From assembly GCA_963843375.1 (NCBI GenBank), contig CAWJKT010000015.1:64001-128000 (forward strand): a stretch of DNA of 64,000 bases. Reading direction: 5' to 3'. This document shows, piece after piece, positions 6,794 to 24,046 of this stretch (position 1 is the first letter of the stretch; every line of letters begins with the position of its first letter). Origin of the DNA: an uncultured Pseudomonadota bacterium. Lineage in GTDB: Bacteria > Oederibacteriota > Muellerivitia > Muellerivitales > Muellerivitaceae. Under the pieces are notes generated by a model. It was not told the DNA's origin. It made no database searches and saw only the letters and a program-made list of their open reading frames with translations. Made by a program: the position numbers and the translations under genes.

Positions 6794-6802
6794 TGATATA
6801 AT
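6794..6802 (+). promoter_or_regulatory. Extended -10 promoter (TGnTATAAT) upstream of the pilT-che cluster
   Basis: TGATATAAT, 44 nt upstream of the ATG at 6847, in the intergenic gap. Confidence 0.55.
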
Positions 6803-6846: not shown

Positions 6847-9150
6847 ATGGACCTTCAGCAGCTCCTTTATTCCATGGTTGAAAAAAAGGCCTCCGATGTG
6901 CATATGAAGGCCGGTGCTCCTCCTCTTTTTCGTATTGATGGTGACTTGGCCCCCCAAAGCGAGAATCCCTTGACCCCCCAGGAACTAGCTGAAGTGGCTT
7001 CCTATCTCATGGATGAAAAACAACAAAGAACCTTTTTCGAAGAACATAAAGAAGTGGATTTGGCCTATGCCGTGGAAGGTTTGGCTCGATTCAGGACCAA
7101 TGCCATGTGGCAAAGGGGATTGCCTGAGATAATTATGCGCGTTATTCCACAGCGCATTCCGAAAATTGAAGATATTAATATGCCGACAGCGATTCTGAAA
7201 CAAATTGCCATGGAGCAACGGGGCCTAATTCTGGTGACCGGAATCACGGGATCGGGCAAATCCACTACTTTAGCATCCCTTATCAATGAAATGAACGTCA
7301 ACCGGGCGGCTCATATCGTCACGGTTGAAGATCCCATCGAGTTCGTCCATCCTGACAAAAAATCAAGCGTCACCCAGCGGGAAGTTGGTCTTGATACCGA
7401 GAGCTTCAAAACGGCCCTTAAATATGTTTTGCGGCAAGACCCAGATATCATTCTGATTGGGGAAATGCGCGATATTGAAACGGTTCAGGCCGCCATATCA
7501 GCCGCCGAAACGGGCCACTTGGTTTTATCGACCCTGCATACGATGGATACGATTCAAACGATCGAGCGTATTTTAGATTTTTTCCCTCCGGAACAACAAA
7601 ATCAAATTCGGGTCCAGCTTGCTGGAACCCTCCGGGCTGTTATTTCCCAACGATTAGTCAACAAGGCCGATGGTGTTGGGGTGGTGCCGGCTTGCGAAAT
7701 CATGATTGTGACCCAGACCATAAAATCCTTGATCGCCGAGGGCAAAATTTCATCCATCCGGCAATTTATCGCGGAAGGCCATAGTCAATATGGCATGCAA
7801 ACTTTCGATCAATCCTTGATTCAATTAGTTCGCGGGGGGTTCATCACGAAAGAAAACGCCATGGAGCAGGCGTCTTCTCCCAGTGAAATAGATTTGGGAT
7901 TAAAAGGCATCTCTTCTTCGAAAGCCTCGGCTCAGTCTCTCATTTCTCAAATGGAGAATGCCCAACAAAAAGACCGCGTCAATGGCTGGCTTAAAAAGGG
8001 GCAGGAATACTATGAAAAACGTCGTTACGATGAAGCAAGGGGTGAACTCAAACGAGTCCTTCAGGAAATTCCGGAGCATAAGGAAGCCAATGCCCTGATG
8101 GCTCGGTTGCGGGAGATGGATAATAAGAGCGAAAAGAAAAAGGACGCGTCCACCAACATCAAAACGGCTTTACAGCTTTACCGGGAGGGGAAGCATCAGG
8201 CGGCGATTTTGGAGTTTCAAAAAGCGCTGGAACTCGACCCGGAAAACAAACAAGCTCAGGGTTATATTAAGGCCATCCAGGAAGAACTGGATAACCGATC
8301 CAAGGCCCGTGAATTCTATCAGGCGGCTTTAAACGCCCAAAATCAAAATGATTTGGCGGGCGCTTTGTCCTATGTGGATCAAGCCCTGGTTCTTGATCCG
8401 GAAAACGAACAAGTCCAAGTTTTACAGCGGGACCTAAAAATATCCGTTCAAAAAGAACAGGCTCGATCCAAGGCTGATTCATTCAATCAAACAGCGATCG
8501 ATTTATACAAGTCGGGGGATTTGTTGAGCGCGTTGGTCGCTTGGAATAAAGCTTATGAGCTCAATTCCGAATTGGAAGATGTCGCCCGCTATCTTCAACA
8601 GGGAATCACCAAGCTTTTGTCATTTGGGGTGGATGGGTTGGATGCTAATCCAGAGAAACAGCTTATTTTAAACCTCTTCGAACAGGGAGTCCGCAGTTAT
8701 GTCCGTGGCGATTTTCAAACAGCTATGGACTTTTTCAAAAAAGCCATTTCCAAGGCCGATGGAAATAATTATTTAAACGCCTATCTTCAAAAGTCCGGCC
8801 AAATGTTGGAACAACAGATCGGCGAGTTCCTTCAAGACGGGATTCGTGCCCAACAATCCGGAGATTTGACTACCGCCCAAAAGGAATTCACGAAAGTCAT
8901 TCGGCTTTCCCCCGGACACCCTGAAGCCATTAAACAATTAGGGGCATTGAAGGTGACTATCCAGCAGAACATGGAAAAACTTTACGCCGATGGCAAACAA
9001 TATTTTGATGCCAATGACATGGACCGGGCCATTCGGATTTGGACCCAGATTTTAGACCTGGAGCCTTCAAATGAACGGGCTCAGAAGCGCATTGAAGAGG
9101 CGAAGATCAAAAAAAATACCTTAAGCGGAATATTTTCAAAAATCAGTTGA
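6847..9150 (+). CDS. PilT/PilU-family type IV pilus retraction ATPase fused to a long C-terminal TPR region
   Basis: ASDVHM, Walker A TGITGSGKSTT, Asp box EDPIE, LRQDPDIILIGEMRD, His box TGHLVLSTLH and GMQTFDQSL. About 400 extra C-terminal residues form TPRs (ALELDPEN, ALVLDPEN, ILDLEPSN). Confidence 0.9.
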   Translation: MDLQQLLYSMVEKKASDVHMKAGAPPLFRIDGDLAPQSENPLTPQELAEVASYLMDEKQQRTFFEEHKEVDLAYAVEGLARFRTNAMWQRGLPEIIMRVIPQRIPKIEDINMPTAILKQIAMEQRGLILVTGITGSGKSTTLASLINEMNVNRAAHIVTVEDPIEFVHPDKKSSVTQREVGLDTESFKTALKYVLRQDPDIILIGEMRDIETVQAAISAAETGHLVLSTLHTMDTIQTIERILDFFPPEQQNQIRVQLAGTLRAVISQRLVNKADGVGVVPACEIMIVTQTIKSLIAEGKISSIRQFIAEGHSQYGMQTFDQSLIQLVRGGFITKENAMEQASSPSEIDLGLKGISSSKASAQSLISQMENAQQKDRVNGWLKKGQEYYEKRRYDEARGELKRVLQEIPEHKEANALMARLREMDNKSEKKKDASTNIKTALQLYREGKHQAAILEFQKALELDPENKQAQGYIKAIQEELDNRSKAREFYQAALNAQNQNDLAGALSYVDQALVLDPENEQVQVLQRDLKISVQKEQARSKADSFNQTAIDLYKSGDLLSALVAWNKAYELNSELEDVARYLQQGITKLLSFGVDGLDANPEKQLILNLFEQGVRSYVRGDFQTAMDFFKKAISKADGNNYLNAYLQKSGQMLEQQIGEFLQDGIRAQQSGDLTTAQKEFTKVIRLSPGHPEAIKQLGALKVTIQQNMEKLYADGKQYFDANDMDRAIRIWTQILDLEPSNERAQKRIEEAKIKKNTLSGIFSKIS

Positions 9151-9190
9151 TCTTACCTTGGCTGTTTTTGACTTTTAAAATTAAAAAGGG

Positions 9191-9604
9191 GTGGAAATGA
9201 AATTAATGATAGTGGGTGCTGGAGTTTTAATTCTGATTTTTATCGTTGTGCTGAACACGTCAATGGTCGCGGACCAAGCGTTATCTTGGGTTGCGGCCAA
9301 TCCAAAGGATCCTGGAGCCCCTGATGTTCTTTATCGCACGGCGCGGTGGTGCGATATGCTTGGTAGCGACGACAAGGCAGCATCCATATATTTACAATTG
9401 TACCAACAATATCCCGAGCGGGGGGACTTGTGTGCGCCCGCCCTTTATCATTTGGCGTACAATCTGGCGAATGGAACATATATTGTTGGAATCAAAAAAC
9501 AAGCCCTCCCTTATTTAGAAACGATCATGAACCAGTATTCGAGTCAAGACGAATGGTCGACTAAGGCAAAACAACTTTATGATGAGGTGAATTATGCCCA
9601 TTAA
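9191..9604 (+). CDS. Small membrane-anchored TPR-like protein (YbgF/BamD-like repeat)
   Basis: N-terminal hydrophobic helix, then APDVLY..AASIYLQLYQQYP..APALY pattern. GTG start with SD-like AAGGG. Confidence 0.6.
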   Translation: MEMKLMIVGAGVLILIFIVVLNTSMVADQALSWVAANPKDPGAPDVLYRTARWCDMLGSDDKAASIYLQLYQQYPERGDLCAPALYHLAYNLANGTYIVGIKKQALPYLETIMNQYSSQDEWSTKAKQLYDEVNYAH

Positions 9605-10643
9605 GCTTGGCCGGACTGCGGAATGTTTGATTTTAATGTCGGCTATTTTTGCATTAGGAATTGGGTGCCGTTTGTGGGCGGCAACGGTAGAGGTGGAAAA
9701 TGAGGATGATGATATTTCCGTGATTCCCACGCCTGCGCCAAAGGCAATGAATCCCCAAGTGACTCCATCGAACGATAAAGGGGTTGATGCGGATATTGAA
9801 TTACAGGGCGAAGAAAAAGAAGTTTTGCCATCGCCAACACCCGTAAAAAAACCAGAGGTGGATACACCAACTCCGAGCGTTGTTGCAAATGAAAGCCAAG
9901 TGAAAAAAAATGAACAGTCGAATTCTATCGAATCGACCTTACCTCGGGTTCGGATCAATGATAATGTTGGTTTTTATTATTTTGTTTCCGCCGGTTTCAT
10001 GATTTCAGATAACGCCCAAATGCACTCCATAGGTAAAGTGATCGGGAACGCCGATACCAGCCTTAATTTCAGCATGCCCAAGAGAACTTATATTGAGTTG
10101 GCATCAGATCATTATGAAGTTAGGCCTGATGACTTATTAGTTGTTTTTCATTCGGTGCCGGCGTTTCATGATTCGCATTCCACATTTCCTGCATACCAAA
10201 TCGAAAATCTAGCCATTGTCAAAGTCATCGAAATTCAGAAAAGACGTGTGCTGGTTGAAGTAAAGGAATCTTTCCGGACTTTTCAGGACGGGGACTTAGT
10301 GGAGACTTATGAAAATGAGATTAAAAGATGGAAACAGGCTCAAATTAAAAAAGTCCTTCCTTCGCACCCCGTTAAATGTTTTGTAATGGGGGGGGAGTTA
10401 AGCCGCCAAAATTACGAACAAACAGATTTTATTTTTCTTTCCGCTGGCTCAAAAGCTGGTGTTGTGGAAGGCCAAAAATTTGAACTACGGGAAATTGACA
10501 ACACTGGTGCTATGGAAGAGCCTCTTCATGCGCTGCGAGGCGTCGCCCAAGTTATTTCTGCAGGACTAAGGTGCTCCACGGCACAAATCATTAGCAATAG
10601 TGAATCCATTAAAAAAGGTTTTGAAGCCGTTTACCAACCTTAG
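9594..10643 (+). CDS. Exported protein with a Pro/Thr-rich linker and a TsaP/FlgT-C-like beta domain (tentative)
   Basis: Signal peptide-like N-terminus, low-complexity linker and the motif DFIFLSAGSKAGVVEGQKF, which resembles C-terminal domains of TsaP/FlgT-like envelope proteins. No LysM domain seen. Confidence 0.45.
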   Translation: MPIKLGRTAECLILMSAIFALGIGCRLWAATVEVENEDDDISVIPTPAPKAMNPQVTPSNDKGVDADIELQGEEKEVLPSPTPVKKPEVDTPTPSVVANESQVKKNEQSNSIESTLPRVRINDNVGFYYFVSAGFMISDNAQMHSIGKVIGNADTSLNFSMPKRTYIELASDHYEVRPDDLLVVFHSVPAFHDSHSTFPAYQIENLAIVKVIEIQKRRVLVEVKESFRTFQDGDLVETYENEIKRWKQAQIKKVLPSHPVKCFVMGGELSRQNYEQTDFIFLSAGSKAGVVEGQKFELREIDNTGAMEEPLHALRGVAQVISAGLRCSTAQIISNSESIKKGFEAVYQP

Positions 10644-10673
10644 GAGGTTTTCGGACCCCGAGAGGAATCTCTC

Positions 10674-11531
10674 ATGACTGTGATGATAGAGGAAGATCAG
10701 AGTTTTAAAAAAATATTGGCTTTTCTTTTGCGCTCAAAAGGTTTCGACGGTAATCACTATAAAACTAATTACATCAAACGTCGAATCGCGGTTCGAATGA
10801 GGGTGGTCGGAGCTTCAACCTATACCGACTATTTAAAAATCCTCCAACATAACCTTGAAGAACCAGCCAGACTTCTGGACCGCCTGACAATCCACGTAAC
10901 AGAATTTTTTCGTGATCCGAGTGTTTATAAAGCGGTCCAAGAAAAAGTACTTCCCGGTTTTTTGGGAAAAGCAGGAAAAAAAATGAAAGTATGGTGCGCT
11001 GGCTGCAGTACCGGTGAGGAGCCCTATTCACTTGCGGGGCTGTTGAACGAATGGGTTTCTTCGAATCCGGAGTACTCTTTTCAAATATTTGCTACGGACA
11101 TTGACCTAAAAAGCATCAGCTTCGCTGAAAAAGGGGAGTATTCACGTGAGTCCTTGGTAAAGGTGCCCAAAGGGGGGCTGACCCGTTGGTTTCGTTCCGA
11201 TGGAACAAAGGTCTCAGTTTCATTTGAATTGAAGAATCATGTTCGATTCAGGGTACATGATTTGCTTGGGAAATGGATGGCAAGTTTGTCCGATTTCGAC
11301 CTCATCTTTTGCCGGAATCTTTTAATCTACCTTACTGGAAAACAACAACAAAAAATTTATGAACAGTTTTCAAACGCCCTAAATCCCCAAGGGTATCTTG
11401 TGCTAGGGCTTACGGAAACCCTTCTGGGGCCCGCTCGGAAATATTTCCATTGCGTGGATGTTAAACATCGTATTTATCAAACCCTGGATTCAAGCGGTGA
11501 ATTGGATTTGGAAAAGGATGCGAATGGATAA
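10674..11531 (+). CDS. cheR: Chemotaxis methyltransferase
   Basis: VTEFFRD, VWCAGCSTGEEPYSLA, ATDID, FDLIFCRNLLIY and GYLVLG motifs. Confidence 0.95.
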   Translation: MTVMIEEDQSFKKILAFLLRSKGFDGNHYKTNYIKRRIAVRMRVVGASTYTDYLKILQHNLEEPARLLDRLTIHVTEFFRDPSVYKAVQEKVLPGFLGKAGKKMKVWCAGCSTGEEPYSLAGLLNEWVSSNPEYSFQIFATDIDLKSISFAEKGEYSRESLVKVPKGGLTRWFRSDGTKVSVSFELKNHVRFRVHDLLGKWMASLSDFDLIFCRNLLIYLTGKQQQKIYEQFSNALNPQGYLVLGLTETLLGPARKYFHCVDVKHRIYQTLDSSGELDLEKDANG

Positions 11532-12696
11532 GGCACAAGAACACATCAATTTGGGGACGGCTTTTTCCCTTTCGCGTCGATTCGATGACGCCATCATTGA
11601 GTTCAAAAGAGCGTTGGAACTGAGTCCTTCTGACGCTGAGATACTTTTTCAATTGGGGGGACTCAGCACGAATGTTGGAAATTATGGGGAGGCGGAAAAT
11701 TATTACCGCCGCTCGCTTGAAATAAATCAAATGAATCTAAACGCACATTGCAAGCTGGGACTCCTTTTGGAAGTTCAGGGGAAATATCAGGAAGCTATTT
11801 TGGCGTTTCAGAAATCGGTTGAATTAAATCCTCTTGATGTCGGCCTTTACAATAACCTCGGAAATGTCTATTCCAAAATGGGGAAATACCAGGAGGCGAT
11901 TGGACAATACCAGAAATATATTGTTATCAATAAAAGTAACGCTGAGATTTACTTCAAATTGGGATATGCCTATGAACAAGCCGGTCAGTTGGAGGAGGCG
12001 ATTTCTTCTTACGAACGGGCTTTGATTACGAATCCGCGGCACGCCGCGGTTTACGCTATTTTGGGAAACGTTTATTTAAAAACCGGGAAATACAATGAGG
12101 CGATCGTTCAATACCATCAGGCCGTGAAATTTAACCCTAACGAACCGGAAGTTCATCTTAAACTCGGCCAAGCCTATATGTCACTTGGTCAATACGAAAA
12201 GGCGTTGGAGATTTTGAATCAGGCAAAAATAAAAAATCCCAACAACGCTGAAGTCTATTTGAAATTAGGAATGATTTACGCAAGTCGGGGTCAACATGAT
12301 GAGGCCATTCAAATGTATAGAAAAGTTATGGAAATCAACCCTAATGATGCAAGCGTTCACAATGTTTTGGGGTATATTTATGACAAGCAGGGCGACCTTC
12401 AGCGGGCTCGGGATGAGTATAAAGCCGCCAAGTTAATTAATCCAAACGATGTTCAGATTTTGGACAATTTAGGAAATTTGAGTTACAAACAGGGGAATTT
12501 TGACGAAGCGGTTGTCGAGTTTGAAAAACTGATAACTTTGAATCCTTCTCACCTGGACGCTCAGGCCAAACTGGGAAACATTTACATGAAAAAGGGCGAA
12601 AAAGAAAAAGCCATAGCTCATTGGGAGAAAGCATTGATACTCGATCCTTCGAATGATATTTTAAAAAATAATTTGAAAATTGTGCGAGGGAACTAA
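11524..12696 (+). CDS. All-TPR cytoplasmic protein
   Basis: Continuous 34-aa repeats (NNLGNVY..G.YQEAI, LNPND). No signal peptide or catalytic domain. Start overlaps the cheR stop (ATGGATAA). Confidence 0.9.
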   Translation: MDKAQEHINLGTAFSLSRRFDDAIIEFKRALELSPSDAEILFQLGGLSTNVGNYGEAENYYRRSLEINQMNLNAHCKLGLLLEVQGKYQEAILAFQKSVELNPLDVGLYNNLGNVYSKMGKYQEAIGQYQKYIVINKSNAEIYFKLGYAYEQAGQLEEAISSYERALITNPRHAAVYAILGNVYLKTGKYNEAIVQYHQAVKFNPNEPEVHLKLGQAYMSLGQYEKALEILNQAKIKNPNNAEVYLKLGMIYASRGQHDEAIQMYRKVMEINPNDASVHNVLGYIYDKQGDLQRARDEYKAAKLINPNDVQILDNLGNLSYKQGNFDEAVVEFEKLITLNPSHLDAQAKLGNIYMKKGEKEKAIAHWEKALILDPSNDILKNNLKIVRGN

Positions 12697-12699
12697 TTT

Positions 12700-13338
12700 A
12701 TGATGAAACCGCAAGAAAAATCATTGGGTGAGCTTCTTCGCCAAGCGGGAAAAATCACTTTTCGTCAAATTCAAGTGGCGTTAGGCGAACAAAAAAAAAC
12801 CCATGAACCGATTGGGAAAATTCTGATAAAGCTGGGTTTTGTCGAGGAACAAGACATATTGCAAGTCATGCAAGGGATGATGGTTTTGACCTTTCGTGTG
12901 GAAAAAGAATGGTATGGAATTGAAACATTTCGGGTTCGTGAAGTTTTAAAATACTCACCATTTCAATTGTTGGAAAATCCGAATGGGTCCTGGGTGGGAA
13001 CACTTTCTTTGCGAGGGAAAACTATTTCTGTTTTATCTTTTCGAACTTTTCTGGAAATGGGACAAGTTCAAAGTCCTGAGGGAACTTGGTTTATTGTTTT
13101 GGAAAAGAAAGGGAATCCATTTGTATTGTGGGTTGATCAGGTGAAAGAAGTCACGAGGTTTAAAATAGAACAAATTGAACCCTTGCCGCCTTATTTATTG
13201 GGTAAAAAAAACGACTTATATTATTGTTTGGGTAAAATAAAAGACGATCTTTATTCAATCTTAAATCCAGACAAATTAATCGACGATAACGGCGTTTTAC
13301 TGCCATCGTCAGGGGTTGGTTATGCCTACCCGACCTGA
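12700..13338 (+). CDS. MshEN-like domain fused to a CheW domain
   Basis: Two 24-aa MshEN-type repeats separated by 5 aa, followed by a CheW fold (LTFRV..YGI...VREV...GTLSLRGKTISVL...LWVDQVKEV). Confidence 0.8.
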   Translation: MMKPQEKSLGELLRQAGKITFRQIQVALGEQKKTHEPIGKILIKLGFVEEQDILQVMQGMMVLTFRVEKEWYGIETFRVREVLKYSPFQLLENPNGSWVGTLSLRGKTISVLSFRTFLEMGQVQSPEGTWFIVLEKKGNPFVLWVDQVKEVTRFKIEQIEPLPPYLLGKKNDLYYCLGKIKDDLYSILNPDKLIDDNGVLLPSSGVGYAYPT

Positions 13339-15535
13339 AACTAAAACTATCCGTGAACTTGCCCATGGAAGCGATCAAGGGGACGCTTCTACTCACAATA
13401 ATTTGGGCGTATTTTATTATTCCAAAGGGATGTATGCCGAGGCCATAAAAGAATTTAAAACGGCTTTGGAAGTGGATCCGGAAAACAATCAAGCGCAAGA
13501 AAACTTGAAGGCCGTGAACCGTCATACAGGGCTTTATGATAGGTCGATCGAGGCTTACAAAAAATCAGTCCAAATGTTTCCCCAGGATGCCGAGGCTTAT
13601 TACAATCTGGCCAATGCATATCGTTATACCGGTCAATATGAAAAGGCCATCGAGGAGTATCGAAAGTCGCTCCAATTAAATCCGGACCATCCTTTTGCCA
13701 GGAATTATTTGGGGATTGCTAACAAATGCTTAGGCAGGTTTGATGAAGCACTGGCCGAATTTCGAAAGGCCATTGAAAAAAATCCTTTTTTTGCCGACCT
13801 TCATAATAATTTGGGCGAGGTTTATTATAAAAAAACTATGATCAACGAGGCATTGATCGAGTTTAAAAAAGCTATTTCCCTAAATCCTGATTATGCCATT
13901 GCCCATTACAATTTAAGTTTTGTTTATGGCGACAAAAATATGCTTCAAGAAGCGGAACGAGAATTCAAAAAAGCCGTAGATTTGAATCCGAATTTTGGTC
14001 AAGGATCACAGGCACTTTTGGCTATTGAACGCCCTAAAACCTTGGAAGAAAGGGTAGCGGAGAAAGTCGCAGCAAATCCCGCCGAACACAATGGAGTCGA
14101 TACTTATTTGAGCTTAGCTTCCGCATATAAAGGAAAGGGGTTATTGGACGAGGCTATTCGGGAATATAAACGGGCCATCGAGGCCGTTCCTGGACAAGAA
14201 AAACTTTATCGCGCCTTAGGAGAAATATATCTTGTTAAAGGGATGTTGGAGGACTCCTTAGCGGCTTCCCAAAAAGCCATCGAATTGGCTCCCAAGAATG
14301 TTGAAAACTATATTCAAACAGGGATTGCTTTAAGAGAACTTAATCGAACGGACCAAGCCGCAAAACAGTTTCTAACGGCCATACAAATATCACCTGGATC
14401 TAGTATGGGCCATTTTGAACTGGGAGTGACCTACTTTAAAATGGGTGAAAGTGAAAAGGCGACCCAACAGGTGCGGGAAGCATTGGAAATCGATCCTCAA
14501 AATGCCGAAGCCCATTATTATCTTGGAGTTTATTACTACAAAGTGAATTTATATGACGAAGCCATTCGTGAAATTTCACAAGCCATTGATTTAAATGTTT
14601 CTATCGCATCCAGCGCTGAAGCGTTGACCTATCTGGGATTGGCTTTATCCGATAAGGGACGGTTTGAGGAAGCGATCGCGGAATATAAAAAAGCGATGGA
14701 GTTTGACCCCAAAAATCCGATAATTCACAATAGCTTAGGAGTTGCTTACAAGAATGCAGGTATGATTCAAGAATCCATTGCACATTACCAAAAGGCCATT
14801 GAACTTAACCCCCAATACGCAAAAGCCTACAATAATTTAGGCGTTGTTTACTTTAAAATGAGCCAATACGAGAGGGCCATTGAAGCATTCAAAAAAGCGG
14901 TTGAAATTGAACCGCTTTATAAAACAGCGCAAAATAATTTGGCCGTTGCCCTGAAAAAGAAGAATGTCCTGTCGGAAGCATCGGAAGTTCTTATTAAACA
15001 AATTATGGCGGATCCCGAAAACGCTTCTCTCCATTTCAATTTAGGAATTCTTTATAAGAATACTGGGCAGTTTTTGGAGGCCGTTAGGGAATTTCAAGAA
15101 ACGGTTCGATTAGTTCCGAAGAATCGTGAGGCTCTTACAAATTTAGGTGAAGTTTATTTGAACTTGGAAATGTTGGATGATGCCATAAAGGTTTTGGCAC
15201 GCGCAGTGTCCTGTGATGTTCAATTTCCGGAAGCTCATTTACAACTGGGCAAGGTCTACATTCGGCGCAAATGGTGGGACGAGGCGCTAGTTGAACTTAG
15301 AAAAGCAGAGGAGCTTAAACCGGAATTGAATGAGGTTCATTTTTATTTGGGGCAGGTGTATAGGTTTAAAAGTTGGTGGGATGAAGCGGTTGTCGAGTTT
15401 CAGAAATATATGGACTCCCATAGCCCTGAAGAAGATAAGGTGATTCAATCGATTGACATGCTTCAACAGATACAAGTTTGGAAAAGAGAACTACAGATTT
15501 CTCCCAGCGCCGATAAATCGAAATTGATTAAATAG
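13322..15535 (+). CDS. Large all-TPR cytoplasmic protein
   Basis: Long run of 34-aa TPRs with repeated HNNLG/YNNLG. Overlaps the upstream gene and has no other recognisable domain. Confidence 0.9.
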   Translation: MPTRPETKTIRELAHGSDQGDASTHNNLGVFYYSKGMYAEAIKEFKTALEVDPENNQAQENLKAVNRHTGLYDRSIEAYKKSVQMFPQDAEAYYNLANAYRYTGQYEKAIEEYRKSLQLNPDHPFARNYLGIANKCLGRFDEALAEFRKAIEKNPFFADLHNNLGEVYYKKTMINEALIEFKKAISLNPDYAIAHYNLSFVYGDKNMLQEAEREFKKAVDLNPNFGQGSQALLAIERPKTLEERVAEKVAANPAEHNGVDTYLSLASAYKGKGLLDEAIREYKRAIEAVPGQEKLYRALGEIYLVKGMLEDSLAASQKAIELAPKNVENYIQTGIALRELNRTDQAAKQFLTAIQISPGSSMGHFELGVTYFKMGESEKATQQVREALEIDPQNAEAHYYLGVYYYKVNLYDEAIREISQAIDLNVSIASSAEALTYLGLALSDKGRFEEAIAEYKKAMEFDPKNPIIHNSLGVAYKNAGMIQESIAHYQKAIELNPQYAKAYNNLGVVYFKMSQYERAIEAFKKAVEIEPLYKTAQNNLAVALKKKNVLSEASEVLIKQIMADPENASLHFNLGILYKNTGQFLEAVREFQETVRLVPKNREALTNLGEVYLNLEMLDDAIKVLARAVSCDVQFPEAHLQLGKVYIRRKWWDEALVELRKAEELKPELNEVHFYLGQVYRFKSWWDEAVVEFQKYMDSHSPEEDKVIQSIDMLQQIQVWKRELQISPSADKSKLIK

Positions 15536-15546
15536 TAAGGATATTC

Positions 15547-15885
15547 ATGAAATTGCTTGTTTGTATTATTTCGCCCAAAAAAATTGAACAAGTTAAAAAG
15601 ACTTTATGGGAAGCTGGAGTTCGAGGAGTAACCTTGTCGGAGGGGTATGGTTTTGGATATCAAAGGGTTCAGGTAGAAGCGATAAAAGGGGCGGATTATA
15701 AAGTCCAATACCAGCCGAGAATACGTGTTGAAATTGCATTGCCTAATAATGAAGTTGAAAAAGTGCTTGAACTGCTTTTGGAAACAGTCCGGACGGGTCG
15801 AATTGGAGATGGAAAATTCTTTATCTTACCTCTTGAGGATGCGATTCGTGTTCGCACGGGTGAACGGGGCGAAGGTACTCTTTAA
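15547..15885 (+). CDS. PII-family (GlnB/GlnK-like) signal transduction protein with non-canonical residues
   Basis: 112 aa, colinear with E. coli GlnB. GFG.Q T-loop, GADY (Y51), B-loop TGRIGDGK and C-loop IRVRTGERG are present. Confidence 0.92.
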   Translation: MKLLVCIISPKKIEQVKKTLWEAGVRGVTLSEGYGFGYQRVQVEAIKGADYKVQYQPRIRVEIALPNNEVEKVLELLLETVRTGRIGDGKFFILPLEDAIRVRTGERGEGTL

Positions 15886-16003
15886 TAGGTTTTTATTGAT
15901 TGGCATAAAGCTTAAAATTTAAAAAGGTTTTCATTTTTCAACAAAACAATTAACATCAGTTTGGATCGGAACTACAAATTTATTCGTTTTTAGGGAGGGT
16001 GAA

Positions 16004-16366
16004 GTGGCACATCGAGTTATGCTCGTTGATGATGCGTCTTTCATGAGAATGATGCTGAAAAACATTCTTGTGGGATCCGGATATGAAATTATTGGTGAGG
16101 CTGAAAACGGGGCCAAAGCGGTTGAACAATATAAGAGCCTGAAACCGGATTTAACAATCATGGATATTATCATGCCTGAAATGGGTGGTATTGATGCGGT
16201 ACGGGAAATTGTAAAAATAAATCCTTCCGCAAAAATTCTAATGTGTAGCTCCATGGGTCAACAATCATTAGTGGTGGAAGCAATTCAAGCTGGGGCCAAA
16301 GATTTTATTGTCAAACCTTTTCAACCATCCAACGTATTGGAGGCTGTTAAAAAGGCATTGGGTTAA
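16004..16366 (+). CDS. cheY: Chemotaxis response regulator CheY
   Basis: VDDASFMR, MDIIMPEM, SSMGQQ and KDFIVKPF. GTG start after SD GGGAGG. Confidence 0.93.
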   Translation: MAHRVMLVDDASFMRMMLKNILVGSGYEIIGEAENGAKAVEQYKSLKPDLTIMDIIMPEMGGIDAVREIVKINPSAKILMCSSMGQQSLVVEAIQAGAKDFIVKPFQPSNVLEAVKKALG

Positions 16367-16414
16367 ACCTAAAGCACTTTAAAGTCTATTCGGTTAAACA
16401 AAGTGGGTGGCGCG

Positions 16415-17054
16415 ATGGGAATAGAATCTGAAATTTTCAGTGATTTTCAATTGGATGCTTTGCGGGAAATCGGAAATGTTGGAGCCGGAAACGCCGCCAC
16501 TGCTCTTTCTCAAATGGTCGGGCGCCGAGTCGATATGTCGGTAACAAAGGTTTTGGTTTTGCCAACCGATGGCATTGCGGGTTTTTTAGGCGGGTTGGAT
16601 CAAAATGTGGCTGCGGTTCATATGCCCATCTATGGAGAAGTTTGCGGTATTTCCCTTGTGTTCTTTCCACTGGATAGAATCAATGAGCTTTGTGGGATGT
16701 TGATCGGAAAAGTAGAAAAAGATCCATTCCATTTGTCCGAATTGGGCCAATCCGCCATTAAGGAACTTGGAAGCATACTAACGGGTTCCTATTTAAGCGC
16801 TTTGTTCAGGTTTGTCCATATTCAAATGATCCATGGTGTTCCTGGGCTTGGCGTTAGATATGGCGCAAGCCGTGCTTGATACGGTTTTGGTGGAATTAGA
16901 GCAAAAAGAAGAAATCGCCATCGTGATTGAAACAGAATTTCTTGAAAATGAAAAACAATTAACAGGTAGTTTTTTCCTTTTGCCGGAAGCCGGGTCTTTG
17001 AAAAAATTGTTTATTGCTTTTTCAAAATCACTTGGAATTCCTGGGAATGCCTGA
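16415..17054 (+). CDS. cheC: CheC phosphatase (apparent frameshift at ~16845, probable sequencing error)
   Basis: DALREIGNVGAGNAATALS. Removing one G from GGG at 16844-16846 joins it to ALDMAQAVL..IETEF..GSFFLLP. Confidence 0.88.
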
Positions 17055-17533
17055 AGAAAACTGGATTGTTGGCATCGCGGAATATAAGGTAACCCACAGC
17101 CCAAACAGGCTAGTGGCTTATGGTCTGGGTTCTTGCGTGGGGGCTATACTTTGCGATCTCCAGGCTAAAGTTGGCGGGTTGGCTCATATCATGCTTCCCT
17201 CAAGCCGTCTTTATGTTCAGACGGAATTTCCTGGTAAGTTTGCCGATACTGCGATTGACATGTTAGTAAATGAGATGGAAAAATTGGGGAGCTGTCCAAA
17301 AAATATTTTCTCCAAAATTGTTGGTGGCGCAAATATGTTTTCTTCGATCTCGCAAAATTCAGTTCCGATTGGGTTGCGTAACGTTTCTGCTGTTCGTGAA
17401 AAGTTGCAGCAGCGAAACATCCCTATTTTGGCCGAACAAGTGGGGGGGACCCAGGGAAGAACAGTCTTATTTGATATTGAGACCGGAAAGAGTTGAAATA
17501 CGGAAATTAAATCAATTTTCGGAATGGATTTGA
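17047..17533 (+). CDS. cheD: Chemoreceptor glutamine deamidase CheD (apparent frameshift at ~17488)
   Basis: VGIAEY, GLGSCVG (catalytic Cys), GGLAHIMLP (His), KFADTA, GGANMF, IGLRN and GGTQGRT. Confidence 0.92.
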
Positions 17534-17546
17534 TCGGAAGTGTGAA

Positions 17547-18079
17547 TTGAGTGTTTCGTTATCGGAAGTATCTAATAGTTTCCAGGTTAGCGATGAATTC
17601 CAATGGGTTGTTTTCTGCATAGCTGGATCCGAGATGAGTGTTGGGATCAGTCATGTTCGGGAAATAATCCGTGTGGGCGAAATAACTCGAATGCCAAGGG
17701 CTCCCAAATTTTTGGAAGGAATCATCAATCTGCGAGGACGTATTATCCCCGTTTTAGACTTGAAAAGACGTTTTAATATGCCACTTGTGGATTCGACAAG
17801 TGAATCACGGATATTAGTAGTTGAAATTGAAGACCAAATGTTAGGTCTTTTAGTGGATAAGATTTTAGAAGTCATAAAAGTTTCTGTCGCAAATGTCGCT
17901 CCGCCAAAAGAGACGACATTGAATATCGGCCCCGAGTATCATAAATGGAGTGCTGACTTTGGATCGTCGAAAAATTCTTATTTTTGAACTTGCTGAAGCT
18001 TTTTGTATTTGAGGATATGAAATTATTTTCGGATTCTGAGGCGGGTTCTTTTGGGGAGGGAAAAACCATTGGCCATTAA
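17547..18079 (+). CDS. cheW: CheW coupling protein (apparent frameshifts at ~17940 and ~17983)
   Basis: VREIIR..ITRMPRAPKFLEGIINLRGRIIPVLDL and GLLVDKI. The C-terminus continues in shifted frames (YINGV..ILILNLLKLF). Confidence 0.88.
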
Positions 18080-18434
18080 AGTATTATTCGTGGATGATTC
18101 TTCTTTCATGAGAACTGTTCTGAAAGGGATTATTCTAAAAGACCCTTTTGAACTTGCAGGAGAGGCTGGAACCGGTAAAGATGCCGTGGATCTTTATAAG
18201 AAGTTAAAACCTGATCTCGTCACCATGGATATCGTGATGCCGGAAATGAACGGTATAGACGCCGTAAAAGAGATTCGACTCTTTGACTCGCAAGCGAAAA
18301 TCATTATGGTAAGTGCGATGGGGCAACAGAATATGGTGATTGATTCTATACAGGCAGGTGCCAGGGATTTCATAATTAAACCCTTTCAGCCACCGCGCGT
18401 CCACGAAGCTTTGAAGCGGGTAATTGGTATTTAA
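18069..18434 (+). CDS. cheY: Second CheY response regulator
   Basis: VDDSSFMR, MDIVMPEMNG, SAMGQQ and DFIIKPF. TTG start after SD GGGGAGG. Confidence 0.92.
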   Translation: MAIKVLFVDDSSFMRTVLKGIILKDPFELAGEAGTGKDAVDLYKKLKPDLVTMDIVMPEMNGIDAVKEIRLFDSQAKIIMVSAMGQQNMVIDSIQAGARDFIIKPFQPPRVHEALKRVIGI

Positions 18435-18464
18435 GATGTATATATCAGGCCTTAGGAATTCTTT

Positions 18465-19577
18465 ATGATGCCTGAAAAATCCTCCACCATTAAAGTTTTG
18501 GTCGTCGATGACTCCTACTTCATGCGAAAAATGCTTCAGGATATCTTGGCGGATTCAAGCGATGTTATCCGTGTAGTGGACACCGCTAAAAACGGTTTGG
18601 AGGCAATTGAAAAGACTAAAAAATTAAAACCTGATGTTATTACCATGGATGTCGAAATGCCTCGGATGGATGGTTTGGTGGCTCTTGAAAAGATTATGCG
18701 GGAACGACCGACCCCAGTGATCATGCTCTCGAGCCACACAGGAAAAGGTAGCGAAGCCACTATTCGGGCGCTGGAATTAGGAGCCGTTGATTTTATCGAA
18801 AAGCCGGTCGGCAGGATCTTGGAAAATGTTCGGGACATTCAAGGTGAATTGATTGAGAAAATTAAGATGGCGTCCCTAAGCAGGCCAAGATACTTTCCTC
18901 CATCGAGTCCAGAAGTTGAAACTAAAAGTTCAATAAAAAACCGTCCGCAGGTGAGCGGGGCTTCATCAAACGGTATCAAAAGTGAAAATCGGGCGACTTT
19001 TATTGTTGCAATCGCCTCGTCGACGGGCGGTCCCCGCGCACTGAACGAGCTTTTTTCTCGAATAACTGGAAATTCAACTTCGGCTTTCGTAATTGTGCAA
19101 CATATATCCGTTGGATTTACCAAGGCTTTAGCCCGAAGGTTAGGGGAAGTGAGCCCATTAGTATTTTCAGAAGCAATAGAAAATGGTTACTTGAAAGCAG
19201 GATGTGTTTATCTCGCGCCTGGGGGATGTCATCTCGTTTTAGAGGGGTTGCCCGGCAATTTTCGATTTGCCTTTGACGACTCTCCTCCCCGTTTAGGCGT
19301 CAAGCCCTCGGCGGATATTACAATGGCCTCCGTGGCAAAGGTTGCTCCAAAAAAATGTTTGGGAGTTGTTTTAACAGGAATGGGCCGGGATGGAACTATT
19401 GGTTTAAAAAGTATACGAGCTGTTGGTGGAAAAACGTTTGCTCAAGATGCAGAGAGTTGTGTTGTCTATGGCATGCCTAAATCTGCGATGGATGCCAAAG
19501 TGATAGATCGACAATTGCCAATAGCCGCAATTGCGGCTGAAATCAATGCCTTTTTAAGCCACCAAATTGAACTCTAG
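18465..19577 (+). CDS. cheB: Chemotaxis methylesterase CheB (REC + methylesterase)
   Basis: REC domain (VDDS, MDVEMPRMDG). Catalytic triad motifs ASSTGGP, VQH and LTGMGRDG are intact; YGMPK present. Confidence 0.95.
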   Translation: MMPEKSSTIKVLVVDDSYFMRKMLQDILADSSDVIRVVDTAKNGLEAIEKTKKLKPDVITMDVEMPRMDGLVALEKIMRERPTPVIMLSSHTGKGSEATIRALELGAVDFIEKPVGRILENVRDIQGELIEKIKMASLSRPRYFPPSSPEVETKSSIKNRPQVSGASSNGIKSENRATFIVAIASSTGGPRALNELFSRITGNSTSAFVIVQHISVGFTKALARRLGEVSPLVFSEAIENGYLKAGCVYLAPGGCHLVLEGLPGNFRFAFDDSPPRLGVKPSADITMASVAKVAPKKCLGVVLTGMGRDGTIGLKSIRAVGGKTFAQDAESCVVYGMPKSAMDAKVIDRQLPIAAIAAEINAFLSHQIEL

Positions 19578-19649
19578 TGACGGAATGTCATAACCAATGG
19601 TTTAAAATACATAAGGTGATTTGGACTTTGTTATTGACGGGAGCTTTTA

Positions 19650-21745
19650 GTGAACATCGGAGATTATAAAGATGCTTTTTTGACGGAAGCCCGCGAGTAC
19701 TTATCGACACTTAATAATTCCTTGGTTTTGTTGGAAAAAAATCAAACTCAAACCGACGCCATTAATGATATTTTCCGAGCGGCTCATACACTTAAGGGGA
19801 TGGCCGCGACGATGGGTTACGATCCAATGGTGCGGTTGACACACCAAATGGAAACACTTTTGGAACCGATTCGTTCCGGGACTCAAAATCCTTTCTACCC
19901 GAATGGTAGATGTCCTGTTTGTTTGTTTGGATCAGTTGGAAAAATGGTTGGAAATTTTAATGACGCAAGATTTTATTGAGGAAGAAAGCCTTCAAACGGT
20001 TCTTCAATTGCTCTATTCGGTTTGGGATGACCAATCTAATTCAGATGTTTCCGGGATCGATTCTTTTACCCCCGAAATCGAAATTCCACTACTTTTCTCG
20101 GAATCGGAAAATGAAATATTGTCCCAAGCTAAGATAAATGGCTTTTCTATCTTTAAAATTATCAATCCAATTAGTCCCGGATTGTAATTTCAAAGAAGTT
20201 CGAGCTTTCATGATCCTAAAAAACATAAATGTGTTTGGCGAAATTGTTCAAAAGCCGTCCTATTCCCGAAGAAATTGAAAAGGGACATTTTATGGACCGG
20301 TTTATATTAGTTGTTGTGACTGATTGGAAACCTGAAAAAATCAAAGAATCGCTTTTGAATGTTGGAGAGGTTATCGATGTTAGAGTCGAGGACTTTGTGC
20401 CCAGAATCTTCTTCGGCTCCATTTACTGGGAATGAGGAAGTTTTGGGGCTGAATTCGAAAACGATTTCTCTTTCTCCGCCGAGTCAGTCGGTGGCCCCGG
20501 AAGAGCGGAAGATTATTTTACCTACCATCCGTGTCCATACCTCGAAATTAGATAAATTAATGGCATTGGTTCAGGAATTGGTAATTTCGAAAATTCGCTT
20601 TGAACAAGTTGCTACCTCCAAAGCATTGAAAGAGTTGTCGGACCCGCTTTCACAACTAAATCACATTACCGACGAACTTCAGGACGAAATTATGAAGGTT
20701 CGTCTGATGCCCGTGAAACAAATTTTCGAAAGATTTCCGAGGATGATTCGGGACTTGGCCAAAAATTTGAATAAACAAGTTGATTTGGAAATGGATGGAG
20801 CGGAAGTTGAATTAGATAGGACAGTACTAGAGGAAATGAGCGAACCACTTGTTCATCTTTTAAGAAACGCGGTTGACCATGGGATAGAAGAACCCGAAAT
20901 AAGGACCAAAGAAGGGAAGGAACCCTATGGGACCATCCGGCTTCAGGCTAAACGCGAGAGATCTTATGTTGTTATTTCCATTTCGGATGACGGTCGGGGG
21001 GTTGATCCGGATATTATTCGACAAAAATCTATTGAAAAAGGACTTGTGACCCCTGACGATGCGGCAAAACTAACAGATGAAGAGGTGATTCGTTTGATTG
21101 CCTTACCTGGCTTTTCAACCGTTGAAAATGCTACTGAAATATCTGGCCGAGGTGTTGGGGTTGATGTGGCCAAAACAAAAGTTGAAATACTTAGGCGGAA
21201 CTTTTCGGATTCTAAGCAAAAAAGGACATGGAACCACATTTATTTTGAAATTTCCGCTTACTTTGGCAATTATTAAGGCACTTTTAGTCAAGTGTAACCA
21301 GGAAATATTTGCCATGCCTGTTGTCAATATCATTGAAACGCTCGATGTTTTTCCAGCGGAGAAAAAATTGATTCAACAACAAGAAACTATTATTTTGAGG
21401 GGAGATGTTATACCCCTTTATCCACTTCAGGAACTACTGGATTTGCCCATTCCCGATGTTAGTTACATAACTGGACTGGAGACTGTTCTGGTGGTTGAGG
21501 TGGGGGAATCAAGAGTGGGATTGCGGGTGGATGAGGTAATTGCCCAACAAGAGATAGCCATTAAATCCCTAGATCGAATTTTAAAAGGCATACGTGGTTT
21601 TTCGGGCGCAACTATTCTGGGGAATGGTAAGATAGCGCTCATATTGGATGTGAATAGTTTGATCGAAGATTTAAAGGACAAGCGTTTTCAGGTTGAACAT
21701 CCTCTTTTTAGTAAGGAAGACGTTAATGCTTCTCAATCTCGATGA
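19650..21745 (+). CDS. cheA: Chemotaxis histidine kinase CheA with P2 domain (about five apparent frameshifts)
   Basis: Hpt FRAAHTLKGMA; P2-like DCNFKEVRAFMILK read across shifts; IRV...KLDKLM; HLLRNAVDHGIE; DDGRG; PGFST..SGRGVGVD; C-terminal CheW-like GATILGNG. Shifts near 19886, 20165, 20248, 20400 and 21190. Confidence 0.92.
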
Positions 21746-22340
21746 ATTAAATCCAGCTCAACTGGATGCGATAAAAGAAGTTGGAAATATTGGAGCGGGG
21801 CACGGTGCGACAGCCCTTTCTCAGCTTTTAGGGAAAAGAATCTTAATCACTGTTCCTAAAGCAAACATCATTCCCTTATCAGAGATTCCGAGCTTAGTGG
21901 GGGATCCAAATACCCTGGTAGCGGGGCTTACTTTGTCTATTTTGGGGGATGCAACAGGAAAAATTATTCTTTTGTTTCCAAGGGATTCAGCGCTTCATCT
22001 TGCGGACATGCTTTTAAAACAACCGATCGGTTCCAGCAAAATTCTAACCGAAATGGGACATTCGGCCATTAAGGAAGCTGGAAATATTCTAACCGGAGCT
22101 TACTTAAGTGCTTTAAATGAATTTTTGGGAATGTTACTCCTTATTTCAGTTCCAACTTTAGTTTTTGACATGGCGGGTGCCCTTTTGGCTACTGTCACTC
22201 AAGGGTTGGAAGATGCGACAAAAGTTATTTCGATTGAAACACGATTCATTGATGACAACAAAGAAATAGGCGGTTATTTTATTTTGGTTCCAGATGCGGT
22301 TTCGTTACGTGCTATTTTTCAAGCAATCAAGGTTAAGTGA
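21726..22340 (+). CDS. cheC: Second CheC phosphatase
   Basis: DAIKEVGNIGAGHGATALS and SAIKEAGNILTGAYL, so both ExxN motifs are intact. Confidence 0.92.
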   Translation: MLLNLDELNPAQLDAIKEVGNIGAGHGATALSQLLGKRILITVPKANIIPLSEIPSLVGDPNTLVAGLTLSILGDATGKIILLFPRDSALHLADMLLKQPIGSSKILTEMGHSAIKEAGNILTGAYLSALNEFLGMLLLISVPTLVFDMAGALLATVTQGLEDATKVISIETRFIDDNKEIGGYFILVPDAVSLRAIFQAIKVK

Positions 22341-22488
22341 GATTTATTGTTAGTTTTTTGCGGTTTTGAATAAGCCTTTATTTGCGCCTTTCTGATATTT
22401 AATAAGACCGTGTTAATATAATGCCATTAAATTCTATGTTTGCTATCAGCTTGAATAAGAGGTTTTGTGAGTTCCGACACCACCCTAA

Positions 22489-23565
22489 TTGAAAAACTCA
22501 TTTCACGTTGTGTCAAACCCGCCAATTCATCAATCAAATCTAGTTGCATGCTGTAAAGATATTCTGGAAAACTTCAAATTTGACTGTGTTTTTTTGGCTC
22601 GCGCTTCCAATGCCGAAGAACCCCTTTCGATAGTGGCATTAGATGGTAAGGAAGAAGTAATGGATACCTGCCTTTATCGGTTGGGGGTGGAGGAGCGAAA
22701 TGCACTTTCCAAACTTCCGCTAAAAACCTATTTGGATATAACTGGAAAACCTGTTTTCAATAAATCCGGGTCTCTTCGCATTCAAAAACCCAACAGCGGC
22801 GTGTTTATGGTATTGAACCGGGCAAAAAAAAATTATTTGTTATTTGGATGTGCTCATCAGAATTCGCAAGCTTATGATCATAAAACGCTGGAGGAGCTTT
22901 CCGCACTTTGGAAGCTGTGGCAGGAACCGTTGGAAAGAGCCGTTCTGCAAGTGTCCGAAACGGGGAAAAAGGACGGGGGAATTGATAATTCAAAGAATGA
23001 AACTGTTGTTGAAGAAAAACCGGGTTTCACTTTAATTAATTCAGTTACAACGCCCCAATCCCCTGAACTTAATCGAGATGGACGTCGCCCGATAGTCCTG
23101 GTGGATGAAGTGACTCGTCTTTTTAATAAAGAATATTTTGCCGAATGTCTTTCAATTGAGGTTGAAAGGGCGAAAAGATATTCCCGCTTGATGAGCCTTA
23201 TGTTTCTAAGCGTTTCACCTGTTGATGGCGTTTCAAGCAAACTGGATAAAAATCTAGTGGCGACACAAGTCGCTGAAATTCTTTCCAAGAGTCTTCGCCG
23301 GGTAGATGTAATCTGTCGGTTAGATCAAAATAAATACGGAATAATTCTTCCGGACACGGCGAATAACACGTATGGAATTATTGCGAAAAGAATTTTTAAA
23401 TTCTTCAAGCTAATTATGGGAGACGCGTCTCCTGTGTTTCTTAATATCAGTGCTTCTACTTATCCAAAGCATGCCGCGGACCATCATAGTCTTCTTGAGA
23501 ATGCTGAAAAACTTTTGGCTCAAGCGCAAGAGGTTGGGCCGAACAAAGCTGTTCTACCGGAATGA
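22489..23565 (+). CDS. Degenerate GGDEF-domain protein with an intact RxxD I-site
   Basis: DEVTRLFN..ERAKRY..LSKSLRRVDVICRLDQNKYGIILPDT. GGDEF is replaced by DQNKY and the DID motif by SVS. Confidence 0.82.
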   Translation: MKNSFHVVSNPPIHQSNLVACCKDILENFKFDCVFLARASNAEEPLSIVALDGKEEVMDTCLYRLGVEERNALSKLPLKTYLDITGKPVFNKSGSLRIQKPNSGVFMVLNRAKKNYLLFGCAHQNSQAYDHKTLEELSALWKLWQEPLERAVLQVSETGKKDGGIDNSKNETVVEEKPGFTLINSVTTPQSPELNRDGRRPIVLVDEVTRLFNKEYFAECLSIEVERAKRYSRLMSLMFLSVSPVDGVSSKLDKNLVATQVAEILSKSLRRVDVICRLDQNKYGIILPDTANNTYGIIAKRIFKFFKLIMGDASPVFLNISASTYPKHAADHHSLLENAEKLLAQAQEVGPNKAVLPE

Positions 23566-23949
23566 AACGGAAAATAATTTAGTTCAAGGTCATCAATCCA
23601 AGTGAATAACCGTATAAACCTTCCTGACCTCCATCTCGAGGGTGTTATTGGATTGCGTTGATGGTAGTCGGAAAAAAATCGTTTTCCCAGTTTCGATTGA
23701 AGTTTTGGTGAGATACACAAAAGGCCTTTGACGGATCAACGATTGGCCTCGGAGTTTAGAGAGAAAAGACTTGGTTCAATAGGTCGCGGAACCTTGTCGT
23801 TTCAAAAATTTCGATTCGCGAATTTTTGTGATTTAAAAATTTTAAAATCTGATATTCGAAAAGAATATAAAAAAACGTCAAATGAAAGTGTTTAAAAGGG
23901 TTTAATTAATTTTTTTCTTCTCGTTTTGCGACCTGAAAAAGCCGAAAAC

Positions 23950-23978
23950 TTGACAAACCCAACGGTACTACCTATTCT
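23950..23978 (+). promoter_or_regulatory. Sigma70-type promoter of topA
   Basis: TTGACA-N17-TATTCT, 68 nt upstream of the topA start. Confidence 0.7.
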
Positions 23979-24046
23979 TGCCCAATTATAAGAGGCACCT
24001 ATAAAATGGTTCTCGAATTGTAATCAACGCTTAATCGGAGATTTCA

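Follow-up and report, generated by a model that had tools for sequence, protein, structure and literature searches.

An apparently undescribed F1/Dif-like chemosensory operon with pilus-associated genes in the phylum FCPU426/Goldbacteria

What does a chemosensory operon control if its first gene encodes a paralogue of the pilus ATPase PilT and its core genes belong to the F class, whose members are taken as markers of flagellar motility? This question is raised by a run of 17 genes at positions 6847-23565 of the window, the whole stretch of 64,000 nucleotides analysed here (assembly GCA_963843375.1, contig CAWJKT010000015.1, positions 64,001 to 128,000), in the 4.05-Mb assembly of an uncultured bacterium (G000) of the phylum FCPU426/Goldbacteria. 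An earlier note, made from the sequence alone, had proposed an F1-like core rewired to control type IV pilus retraction through tetratricopeptide repeat (TPR) scaffolds. We find that the operon is a real and conserved variant of the F1/Dif-like kind, which is apparently undescribed, and, because it is intact in relatives without a flagellar motor, that its target is probably not swimming but the behaviour of pili or of the cell surface. As a tentative explanation we favour a Dif-like, surface- and pilus-coupled pathway of the F1 type with an output other than FliM. As the core is kept with several receptors in genomes in which no motor gene was found, the operon joins Dif as a second case in bacteria where an F1-type core must have a non-FliM output. 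The comparison covered 99 genomes of the phylum, grouped in families (f1, f2, f3 and so on, with G000 in f1 and G001 as a genome of the same genus), and a synteny set of 27 loci from nine families.

The chemosensory core and its conservation

The genes of the window were identified by open reading frame (ORF) calling and family scans. Judged by sequence, the core is of the F1 type, in agreement with the earlier note: it combines a P2-bearing CheA without REC domain, two CheC proteins, CheD, a Thermotoga-like CheY and a receptor of the 44H class. The domains of CheA (19650..21745) were read from the intact 698-aa orthologue of G001 and comprise Hpt, P2 (E 3e-21), dimerisation, HATPase and CheW; the best NCBIfam model is the archaeal CheA_Halo with 518 bits versus 354 bits for the enteric CheA, both below the cut-off. 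CheY1 (16004..16366), with Thermotoga CheY as best solved match, and CheY2 (18069..18434) are both single-domain proteins. CheC2 (21726..22340) retains both phosphatase sites, and in the second site of CheC1 (16415..17054) Asn is changed to Ser in family f1. The set is completed by the methyltransferase CheR (10674..11531), the deamidase CheD (17047..17537, end approximate), a canonical CheW (17547..18040, end approximate) and CheB with REC and methylesterase domains (18465..19577).

Neither the run nor the rest of the window holds a gene for a methyl-accepting chemotaxis protein (MCP). In 7 of the 27 loci a receptor gene stands between cheD and cheW, and the encoded protein of 420-433 aa has a HAMP-like segment and two transmembrane (TM) helices that are separated by about 10 residues. 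Its signalling domain is collinear with that of Thermotoga TM1143, which we take to be 44H, and longer than that of Tsr, i.e. of the 44H class; the receptor aligns to TM1143 without net gaps, whereas 14-residue gaps are needed versus Tsr. Of the four MCPs of G000, the one that matches it best is encoded at C15:44833-46101, some 25 kb 5' of the first gene. Close orthologues of this DifA-like receptor were found in 51 genomes, 49 of which also carry the fusion of an MshEN module to CheW (MshEN-CheW) described below, the other two being incomplete f1 genomes.

The class of chemosensory systems known for type IV pili (Tfp class, Pil-Chp) is built on a multi-Hpt CheA-REC hybrid and lacks CheC and CheD, whereas the CheA found here has a single Hpt domain, a P2 domain and no REC domain, and CheC and CheD are both present. 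Pathways of alternative cellular function (ACF) are marked by CheR-TPR fusions, e.g. WspC and FrzF (PMC3447774). They share with the operon that CheR is always coupled to a TPR unit; however, cheR and the gene of the cytoplasmic all-TPR protein of 390 aa (11524..12696), which lies directly 3' of cheR in all 27 loci, are separate ORFs throughout, the protein has 11 repeats instead of about 2, and no multidomain response regulator is encoded. A complex prediction for CheR and the 390-aa protein gave a score of 0.00, which is evidence neither way.

By analogy, the closest described systems appear to be Dif of Myxococcus and the Dif-like clusters of Geobacter. Dif is described as including CheC and as acting downstream of pili and PilB in the regulation of exopolysaccharide (PMC4671073, PMC5544727), its receptor DifA is a 44H protein of 413 aa with two TM helices (PMC3945109), and the Geobacter clusters are reported to join 44H MCPs with a periplasmic part of 3-10 aa to CheA, CheW, CheY, CheC, CheD and CheR (PMC2577667). 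The earlier note knew of no pilus-linked system with CheC and CheD, a statement that has to be given up in view of these two (PMC4671073, PMC2577667). Like the operon, they have a two-TM 44H receptor almost without periplasmic domain together with CheA, CheW, CheY and CheC (in Geobacter also CheD and CheR); furthermore, Dif works in a non-flagellated, pilus-bearing organism, and a c-di-GMP/MshEN input via PilB has been proposed for it. The operon goes beyond Dif in MshEN-CheW, two large TPR proteins, a PII protein, a second CheY and CheC, CheB, a TsaP-like protein and the PilT paralogue with TPR region (PilT-TPR).

The gene order is conserved in relatives, as the earlier note had expected. Besides the invariant cheR-TPR pair, a PII gene is present in 27 of 27 loci and is followed by cheY-cheC-cheD in all 26 that are not cut by a contig end at this point. 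Ten of 14 f1/f2 loci show the full order from pilT-TPR to a GGDEF gene, one of them interrupted by an unrelated gene 5' of cheA; two more add an FtsA-like gene before the GGDEF gene, one is cut by a contig end and one is split. Full-length MshEN-CheW was found in 65 of the 99 genomes (one split copy counted), and the large TPR protein of the run is 93% identical in G001, with topA at 94%. A quick tree of 16 cluster CheA sequences yields the same four clades as a quick RpoB tree (29 of the 99 genomes, without bootstrap and without outgroup), which fits an ancient operon vertically inherited across the phylum. Families f7 and f10 are nested in the RpoB tree (SH-aLRT, an approximate likelihood-ratio test, 84-93), and this nesting in an unrooted tree suggests the direction of loss in these two families.

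A restriction of MshEN-CheW to the phylum is suggested: multi-CheW proteins dominated a representative search beyond it, in which 4 of 150 rows covered the MshEN part, and a protein-cluster look-up returned one Goldiibacteriota label and one unresolved label of a 'Firmicutes bacterium' metagenome-assembled genome. The protein forms two clusters in Atlas, Goldiibacteriota and FCPU426, and a metagenome scan with one f10 sequence gave 6 loci with the match confined to the MshEN part. Searches on chemotaxis, pili and flagella of FCPU426/Goldbacteria, on MshEN-CheW, on PilT-TPR fusions and on candidate phyla without flagellin, with subscription journals outside their scope, found no publication describing the operon. 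A preprint deals with chemoreceptors of an FCPU426 class, its relevant passage containing no operon analysis (bioRxiv 2025.06.24.661292), and PMC7031533 implies flagellar genes in Goldbacteria, with no mention of chemotaxis or pili in the part concerned.

A second, unrelated and patchy chemosensory cluster lies at C16:36296-41679 of G000 and in locus L080 of G001; it encodes a CheA without clear P2 similarity and an MCP of a shorter class.

Flagellar motor and pilus genes as candidate outputs

The CheY-binding motif of FliM reads LSQxEIDxLL, and the fli/mot operon of G000 encodes a FliM that starts with MDDLLSDGEVSALL and has the similar N-terminal motif LSDGEVSALL. The earlier note had implied that a switch is absent and had named an action of the CheYs on a FliM-type switch encoded elsewhere as a refutation. 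The first point is not supported, as G000 encodes FliM; the second applies by half, as the CheY-type motif of this FliM is intact but no flagellin was found to go with its motor. It is therefore possible, if unlikely, that in f1 CheY-P acts on FliM/FliY of a flagellin-less hook-basal body with an oversized FlgK at its end, a stub that might rotate or sense mechanical stimuli. In favour of such a target, G001 encodes rod, P and L rings, FliK, FlgD, FlgE and a FlgK-like protein of 785 aa (no FlgL was found in its hook operon), the WLLTYAD motif of MotB is intact, CheY is Thermotoga-like, and in several f1 genomes the genes for motor, receptor and operon are found in one chromosomal region. A strong conserved FliM is encoded in 61 of the 99 genomes, of which 45 carry MshEN-CheW.

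Flagellin was detected in only 12 of the 99 genomes and in none of the 32 of f1/f2; 57 of the 61 FliM-bearing genomes are without detectable flagellin, so that 'flagellar genes' in FCPU426/Goldbacteria cannot be equated with swimming. In four near-contiguous genomes Flagellin_C and FliD remained below the cut-off, and the control G036 was positive. The operon shares with the F1 systems of Thermotoga/Bacillus and of archaea the P2-bearing CheA, CheC/CheD, 44H receptors and a near-identical CheY type; it differs from flagellar F1 systems in this lack of flagellin in f1/f2, in a core kept without motor in f7/f10 and in its unique accessory genes. Archaeal F1 systems are described as serving the archaellum through CheF (PMC13747009), which is a precedent for an F1 core that drives a non-FliM motor via an adaptor.

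The hook-basal body with stators is encoded in G000 at C13:22200-35400, C25:1-16400 and C15:25687-27943, and in G001 at loci L062, L063 and L102. FlgK-like proteins are oversized (728-865 aa), and G001 and G003 carry a second long gene of the rod/hook type elsewhere. The region C13:1-22200 of G000 is of high GC content and borders on a truncated fliR, whose remainder is found at the start of C25; contig C13 looks chimeric.

A motor target in general is contradicted from both sides. A motor with the same FliM motif is kept in G013, G029 and G035, in which no CheA was found, and in G013, which is 99% complete, no MCP was found either; as a marker of coupling to the cluster CheY, which we had considered, the motif is hence uninformative. 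In the opposite direction, six relatives with a completeness of 91-100% (G030, G060, G062, G064, G065 and G066) carry the cluster, and neither FliM nor flagellin was found in them; FlhA and FliG were each found in none of the five tested. A single CheA with intact core was present in the three genomes tested (G030, G062 and G066), and 4-7 MCPs in each of the four counted. The che core can therefore do without FliM as output, since it is kept in these six near-complete genomes, in which searches for FliM and flagellin were negative. In 7 of 7 flagellin-linked FliMs read in the phylum (G061 not in the set) the N-terminal motif is missing.

The pilus link starts with the first gene of the run. 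PilT-TPR (6847..9150, 767 aa; TIGR01420 469 bits, cut-off 319) joins a PilT/PilU-family ATPase to a C-terminal TPR region. Its Walker A/B, Asp and His boxes are intact in 20 of 20 rows, and TIKSLIAE replaces the AIRNLIRE that is present in the PilT of the pil operon. This canonical PilT is encoded at C1:230736-231800 in a pilB-pilT-pilC-pilA-pilMNOPQ operon; of the flagellar and pil genes that the earlier note wanted checked, G000 has both, a canonical pil operon and a fli/mot operon. Downstream of pilT-TPR follow a small TPR protein with N-terminal membrane anchor (9197..9604, 135 aa) and an exported protein of 349 aa (9594..10643) with a predicted TsaP fold (pLDDT 78), a candidate PilQ-secretin-associated protein. 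Pseudomonas aeruginosa TsaP (6ve2_O) was its only match at E<=0.001 (E 6e-5), and the superposition (Z 13.7, 210 residues aligned, rmsd 3.8) covers the whole two-domain beta fold. TsaP normally has an N-terminal LysM domain. The operon protein differs from P. aeruginosa TsaP (6VE2) in that its identity is 12%, that no LysM domain was detected with Pfam (residues 30-112 are predicted as low-confidence coil) and that it is encoded away from pilQ. A TsaP homologue precedes cheR in 21 of the 27 loci.

With these genes at hand, an F1 core rewired to drive pilus retraction directly via PilT-TPR and TPR scaffolds has to be considered; we regard it as rather unlikely. It would explain why pilT-TPR is the first gene in 16 of the 27 loci (f1, f2, f3 and f14) behind a conserved promoter, with intact ATPase motifs and tsaP adjacent. 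However, pilT-TPR is not adjacent in f8, f16, f21 and f23, and PilT-TPR was not found in any of 15 f7/f10 genomes, including all 11 with MshEN-CheW. Conversely, 10 genomes of f1, f5, f6 and f9 have PilT-TPR without the cluster, and in G013 and G023 the part from cheR to GGDEF is missing, so that pilT-TPR, small TPR gene, tsaP, dprA and topA were left adjacent. Since PilT-TPR and che core have been lost independently of each other, PilT-TPR is not an obligatory output of the core, and the retraction control proposed in the earlier note is weakened. Its pilus link as such is supported, a PilT paralogue and a TsaP fold being encoded in the same predicted transcription unit.

Presence/absence counts, which were restricted to the 60 genomes at least 90% complete and in which kin are not independent, point in a similar direction: PilT-TPR agrees with MshEN-CheW in 45 of 60 genomes (36 both, 9 neither) versus 56 of 60 (38 both, 18 neither) with the flagellin-less FliM, the latter on about two joint absences. 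That PilT-TPR tracks the flagellin-less motor is a lead only, because of the kinship and the approximately two events. Motor and PilT-TPR as targets are not mutually exclusive. An F1-type array that receives c-di-GMP on CheW and energy state via PII might even be a hub coordinating type IV pili and a previously unrecognised flagellin-less rotary hook; PilT-TPR, gained and lost with this hook motor and not with the che genes, would be the physical link between both machines, an idea that we consider improbable.

Other observations concern the pili themselves. In 3 of 4 f7/f10 genomes the pilT-pilA-pilMNOPQ operon is followed by cheA-cheC at a distance of 4-6 kb, and PilB and PilT were present in 5 of 5 tested among the six motor-less cluster genomes. 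A Tad-like pilus locus of f7/f10 (L088:8321-10414 in G030, L089:4068-6173 in G066) encodes an ATPase of about 700 aa with N-terminal ParA/MinD-like domain. At C1:242111-243838 of G000, a frameshifted TPR gene and a gene for a small protein, Roadblock/MglC-like by eye, follow pilQ-aroC-aroK-aroB, which presumably recalls the myxobacterial pil locus; a single motif query for MglA gave no match in G000.

Cyclic di-GMP, PII and the proposed pathway

The MshEN-CheW protein (12700..13338, 212 aa; NF053729 54.8 bits, cut-off 38) is predicted to consist of four helices followed by a CheW domain. It scores above the cut-off of NCBIfam for this cyclic di-GMP (c-di-GMP) motif and shows the tandem motif with Gly and Leu cluster in a four-helix fold. 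The predicted structure superposes on c-di-GMP-bound MshE of Vibrio (5htl_B of 5HTL) with an rmsd of 0.8 A over 51 columns; it shares with MshE the four-helix subdomain, both glycines, the hydrophobic cluster and the equivalent of Gln32, and differs in its stand-alone CheW partner and in replaced equivalents of Arg9, Arg38 and Gln61. Changes of Arg9, Asp12 or Gln32 are reported to have an at most about fivefold effect and a change of Gly11 to abolish binding (PMC5013675). Because glycines, hydrophobic cluster and Gln32 are kept and the three other residues are not, binding of c-di-GMP by MshEN-CheW is plausible from sequence and model. The supplement of the same paper lists MshEN_N-CheA and MshEN_N-CheX fusions; a stand-alone CheW with MshEN is not among the 'CheW' matches in PMC5013675 or its two supplements. 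If MshEN-CheW binds c-di-GMP, it would be a direct entry point for this messenger into the receptor array.

A second link is the degenerate GGDEF protein (22470..23565, start approximate due to an indel at 22512), found only in f1/f2. Its active site reads DQNKY, which does not correspond to an active diguanylate cyclase, and its I-site is RRVD; all 12 rows long enough to include the I-site have RRVD or RRID, and one more row is truncated. Third, a membrane protein with HD-GYP domain directly precedes cheR in 4 of 4 such loci of the Goldbacteria type that were checked. MshEN-CheW, the I-site GGDEF protein of f1/f2 and HD-GYP before cheR are three separate c-di-GMP links. The messenger is probably made in G000, because 12 of its ORFs match the pattern RxGG(D/E)EF. 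In the PII-like protein (15547..15885) B-loop (TGR(I/L/V)GDGK) and C-loop (RxRT) are kept in 26 of 26 aligned sequences and the T-loop has diverged. The c-di-GMP and PII inputs of the earlier note hold as hypotheses, with the MshEN fold and motif and the nucleotide loops of PII intact.

Elsewhere in G000, the second MshEN motif of PilB (C1:228925) carries Glu instead of Gly (RLEK), so that PilB itself might bind c-di-GMP less well; the PilBs of f7/f10 keep the Gly. Three tandem PII-like genes are located at C29:35843-37163, and more PII paralogues occur elsewhere.

In the Dif-like pathway that we prefer, the sensor-less 44H receptor would inform CheA of the state of the membrane or of the pili by way of two adaptors, of which one carries the MshEN module and would allow c-di-GMP to tune the array directly. 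CheR/CheB and CheC/CheD would adapt and reset the array, and PII would feed in the ATP/ADP state. CheY-P would have partners other than FliM, with the invariant TPR proteins as the likeliest candidates, and this readout would change type IV pilus activity or surface adhesion. The genes pilT-TPR, small TPR gene and tsaP, which in f1 are under the same promoter, are assumed to make up an accessory module for pili and not an obligatory output. Judged by sequence, pili may be either the input, as in Dif, or the output.

Several findings weigh against the Dif-like pathway. The output partners of CheY-P are candidates, and the likeness to Dif is one of receptor type and gene set as given in published descriptions. 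Pilus ATPases are also found in cluster-less families, so pili do not predict the cluster. Neither MshEN-CheW nor the large cytoplasmic all-TPR protein (13316..15535, 739 aa) is essential, because the former is missing in 2 of 27 loci (genus g40) and the latter in 2 of 27 (f3) with the operon kept. The six motor-less genomes form one clade and are not independent, and 7 of 15 f7/f10 genomes have a true flagellum, the cluster CheA being the only one found in G057 and G061. In f7/f10, furthermore, neither PilT-TPR nor a close orthologue of the DifA-like receptor was found, and no TsaP homologue precedes cheR in 5 loci read; direct evidence for pili is thus weakest in the lineage that shows the independence from the flagellum.

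In most families the operon is followed by a gene for an FtsA-like actin-fold protein. It could be the target of a pilus-independent ACF pathway on envelope or cell cycle, with the FtsA-like protein replaced by the I-site GGDEF protein in derived f1, but this we consider very improbable. The protein (about 705 aa) was found in 46 of the 99 genomes, all with cluster genes, is encoded 3' of cheC2 in the loci read and occurs in none of the cluster-less families; it was, however, found neither in G000 nor in 27 of the 30 other f1 genomes, and its weak resemblance to PilM means that it could be pilus-related. One example is L037:17535-19646 (G037), and weak matches to ThiS/TGS were also seen.

Gene run, assembly errors and neighbouring genes

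The earlier note was right about a co-directional run with overlaps or short gaps: the 17 genes are all encoded on the + strand, their order is the one it gave, and the spacing ranges from -23 to 127 bp, where the largest value, upstream of the GGDEF gene, depends on the approximate start of this gene. Every gene it had listed was found, with some corrections: the start of the TPR gene that follows cheR is at 11524, the fold of the 'exported protein' is that of TsaP, and PilT-TPR is a second paralogue of the PilT/PilU type. The single TGnTATAAT before the run is likewise present: the extended -10 promoter element TGATATAAT is located at 6794-6802 on the + strand, the pattern occurs 28 times in the whole assembly, and it stands upstream of pilT-TPR in 11 of 15 inspected related loci. 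A generic promoter and terminator scan, which does not score extended -10 elements without -35, gave counts no higher than shuffles (30 vs 33.9 and 23 vs 20.2).

Nine single extra bases disrupt the frames of cheC1 (one), cheD (one), cheW (two) and cheA (five), at 16847, 17487, 17938, 17980, 19885, 20164, 20250, 20404 and 21191. These frameshifts are assembly errors, because contigs from short reads (four runs of two studies) lack a base at all nine sites and the orthologues in G001 are intact; on the same grounds we ruled out that the four genes are pseudogenes. The short-read contigs also lack a base at 22512 in the GGDEF gene, and the fli operon of G000 shows similar breakage.

A dprA remnant of less than 500 bp is located at 23563-24046 of the window, and in G001 an intact dprA (373 aa) lies between GGDEF gene and topA. 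Upstream of the run, at 2662-6752, pilT-TPR is preceded, as in most f1 loci, by two genes, one for a TPR protein of the polytopic membrane type and one for a TMEM260-like O-mannosyltransferase; surface proteins may thus be glycosylated. Finally, the regions 46180-52168 and 53626-57039 encode a SprA/Sov-like type IX translocon homologue in frameshifted pieces (TIGR04189 198 bits for the first piece) and, after it, a large protein rich in Pro and Thr, whose C-terminal domain is like that of the type IX secretion system (T9SS); this suggests a T9SS-like export route in the phylum.

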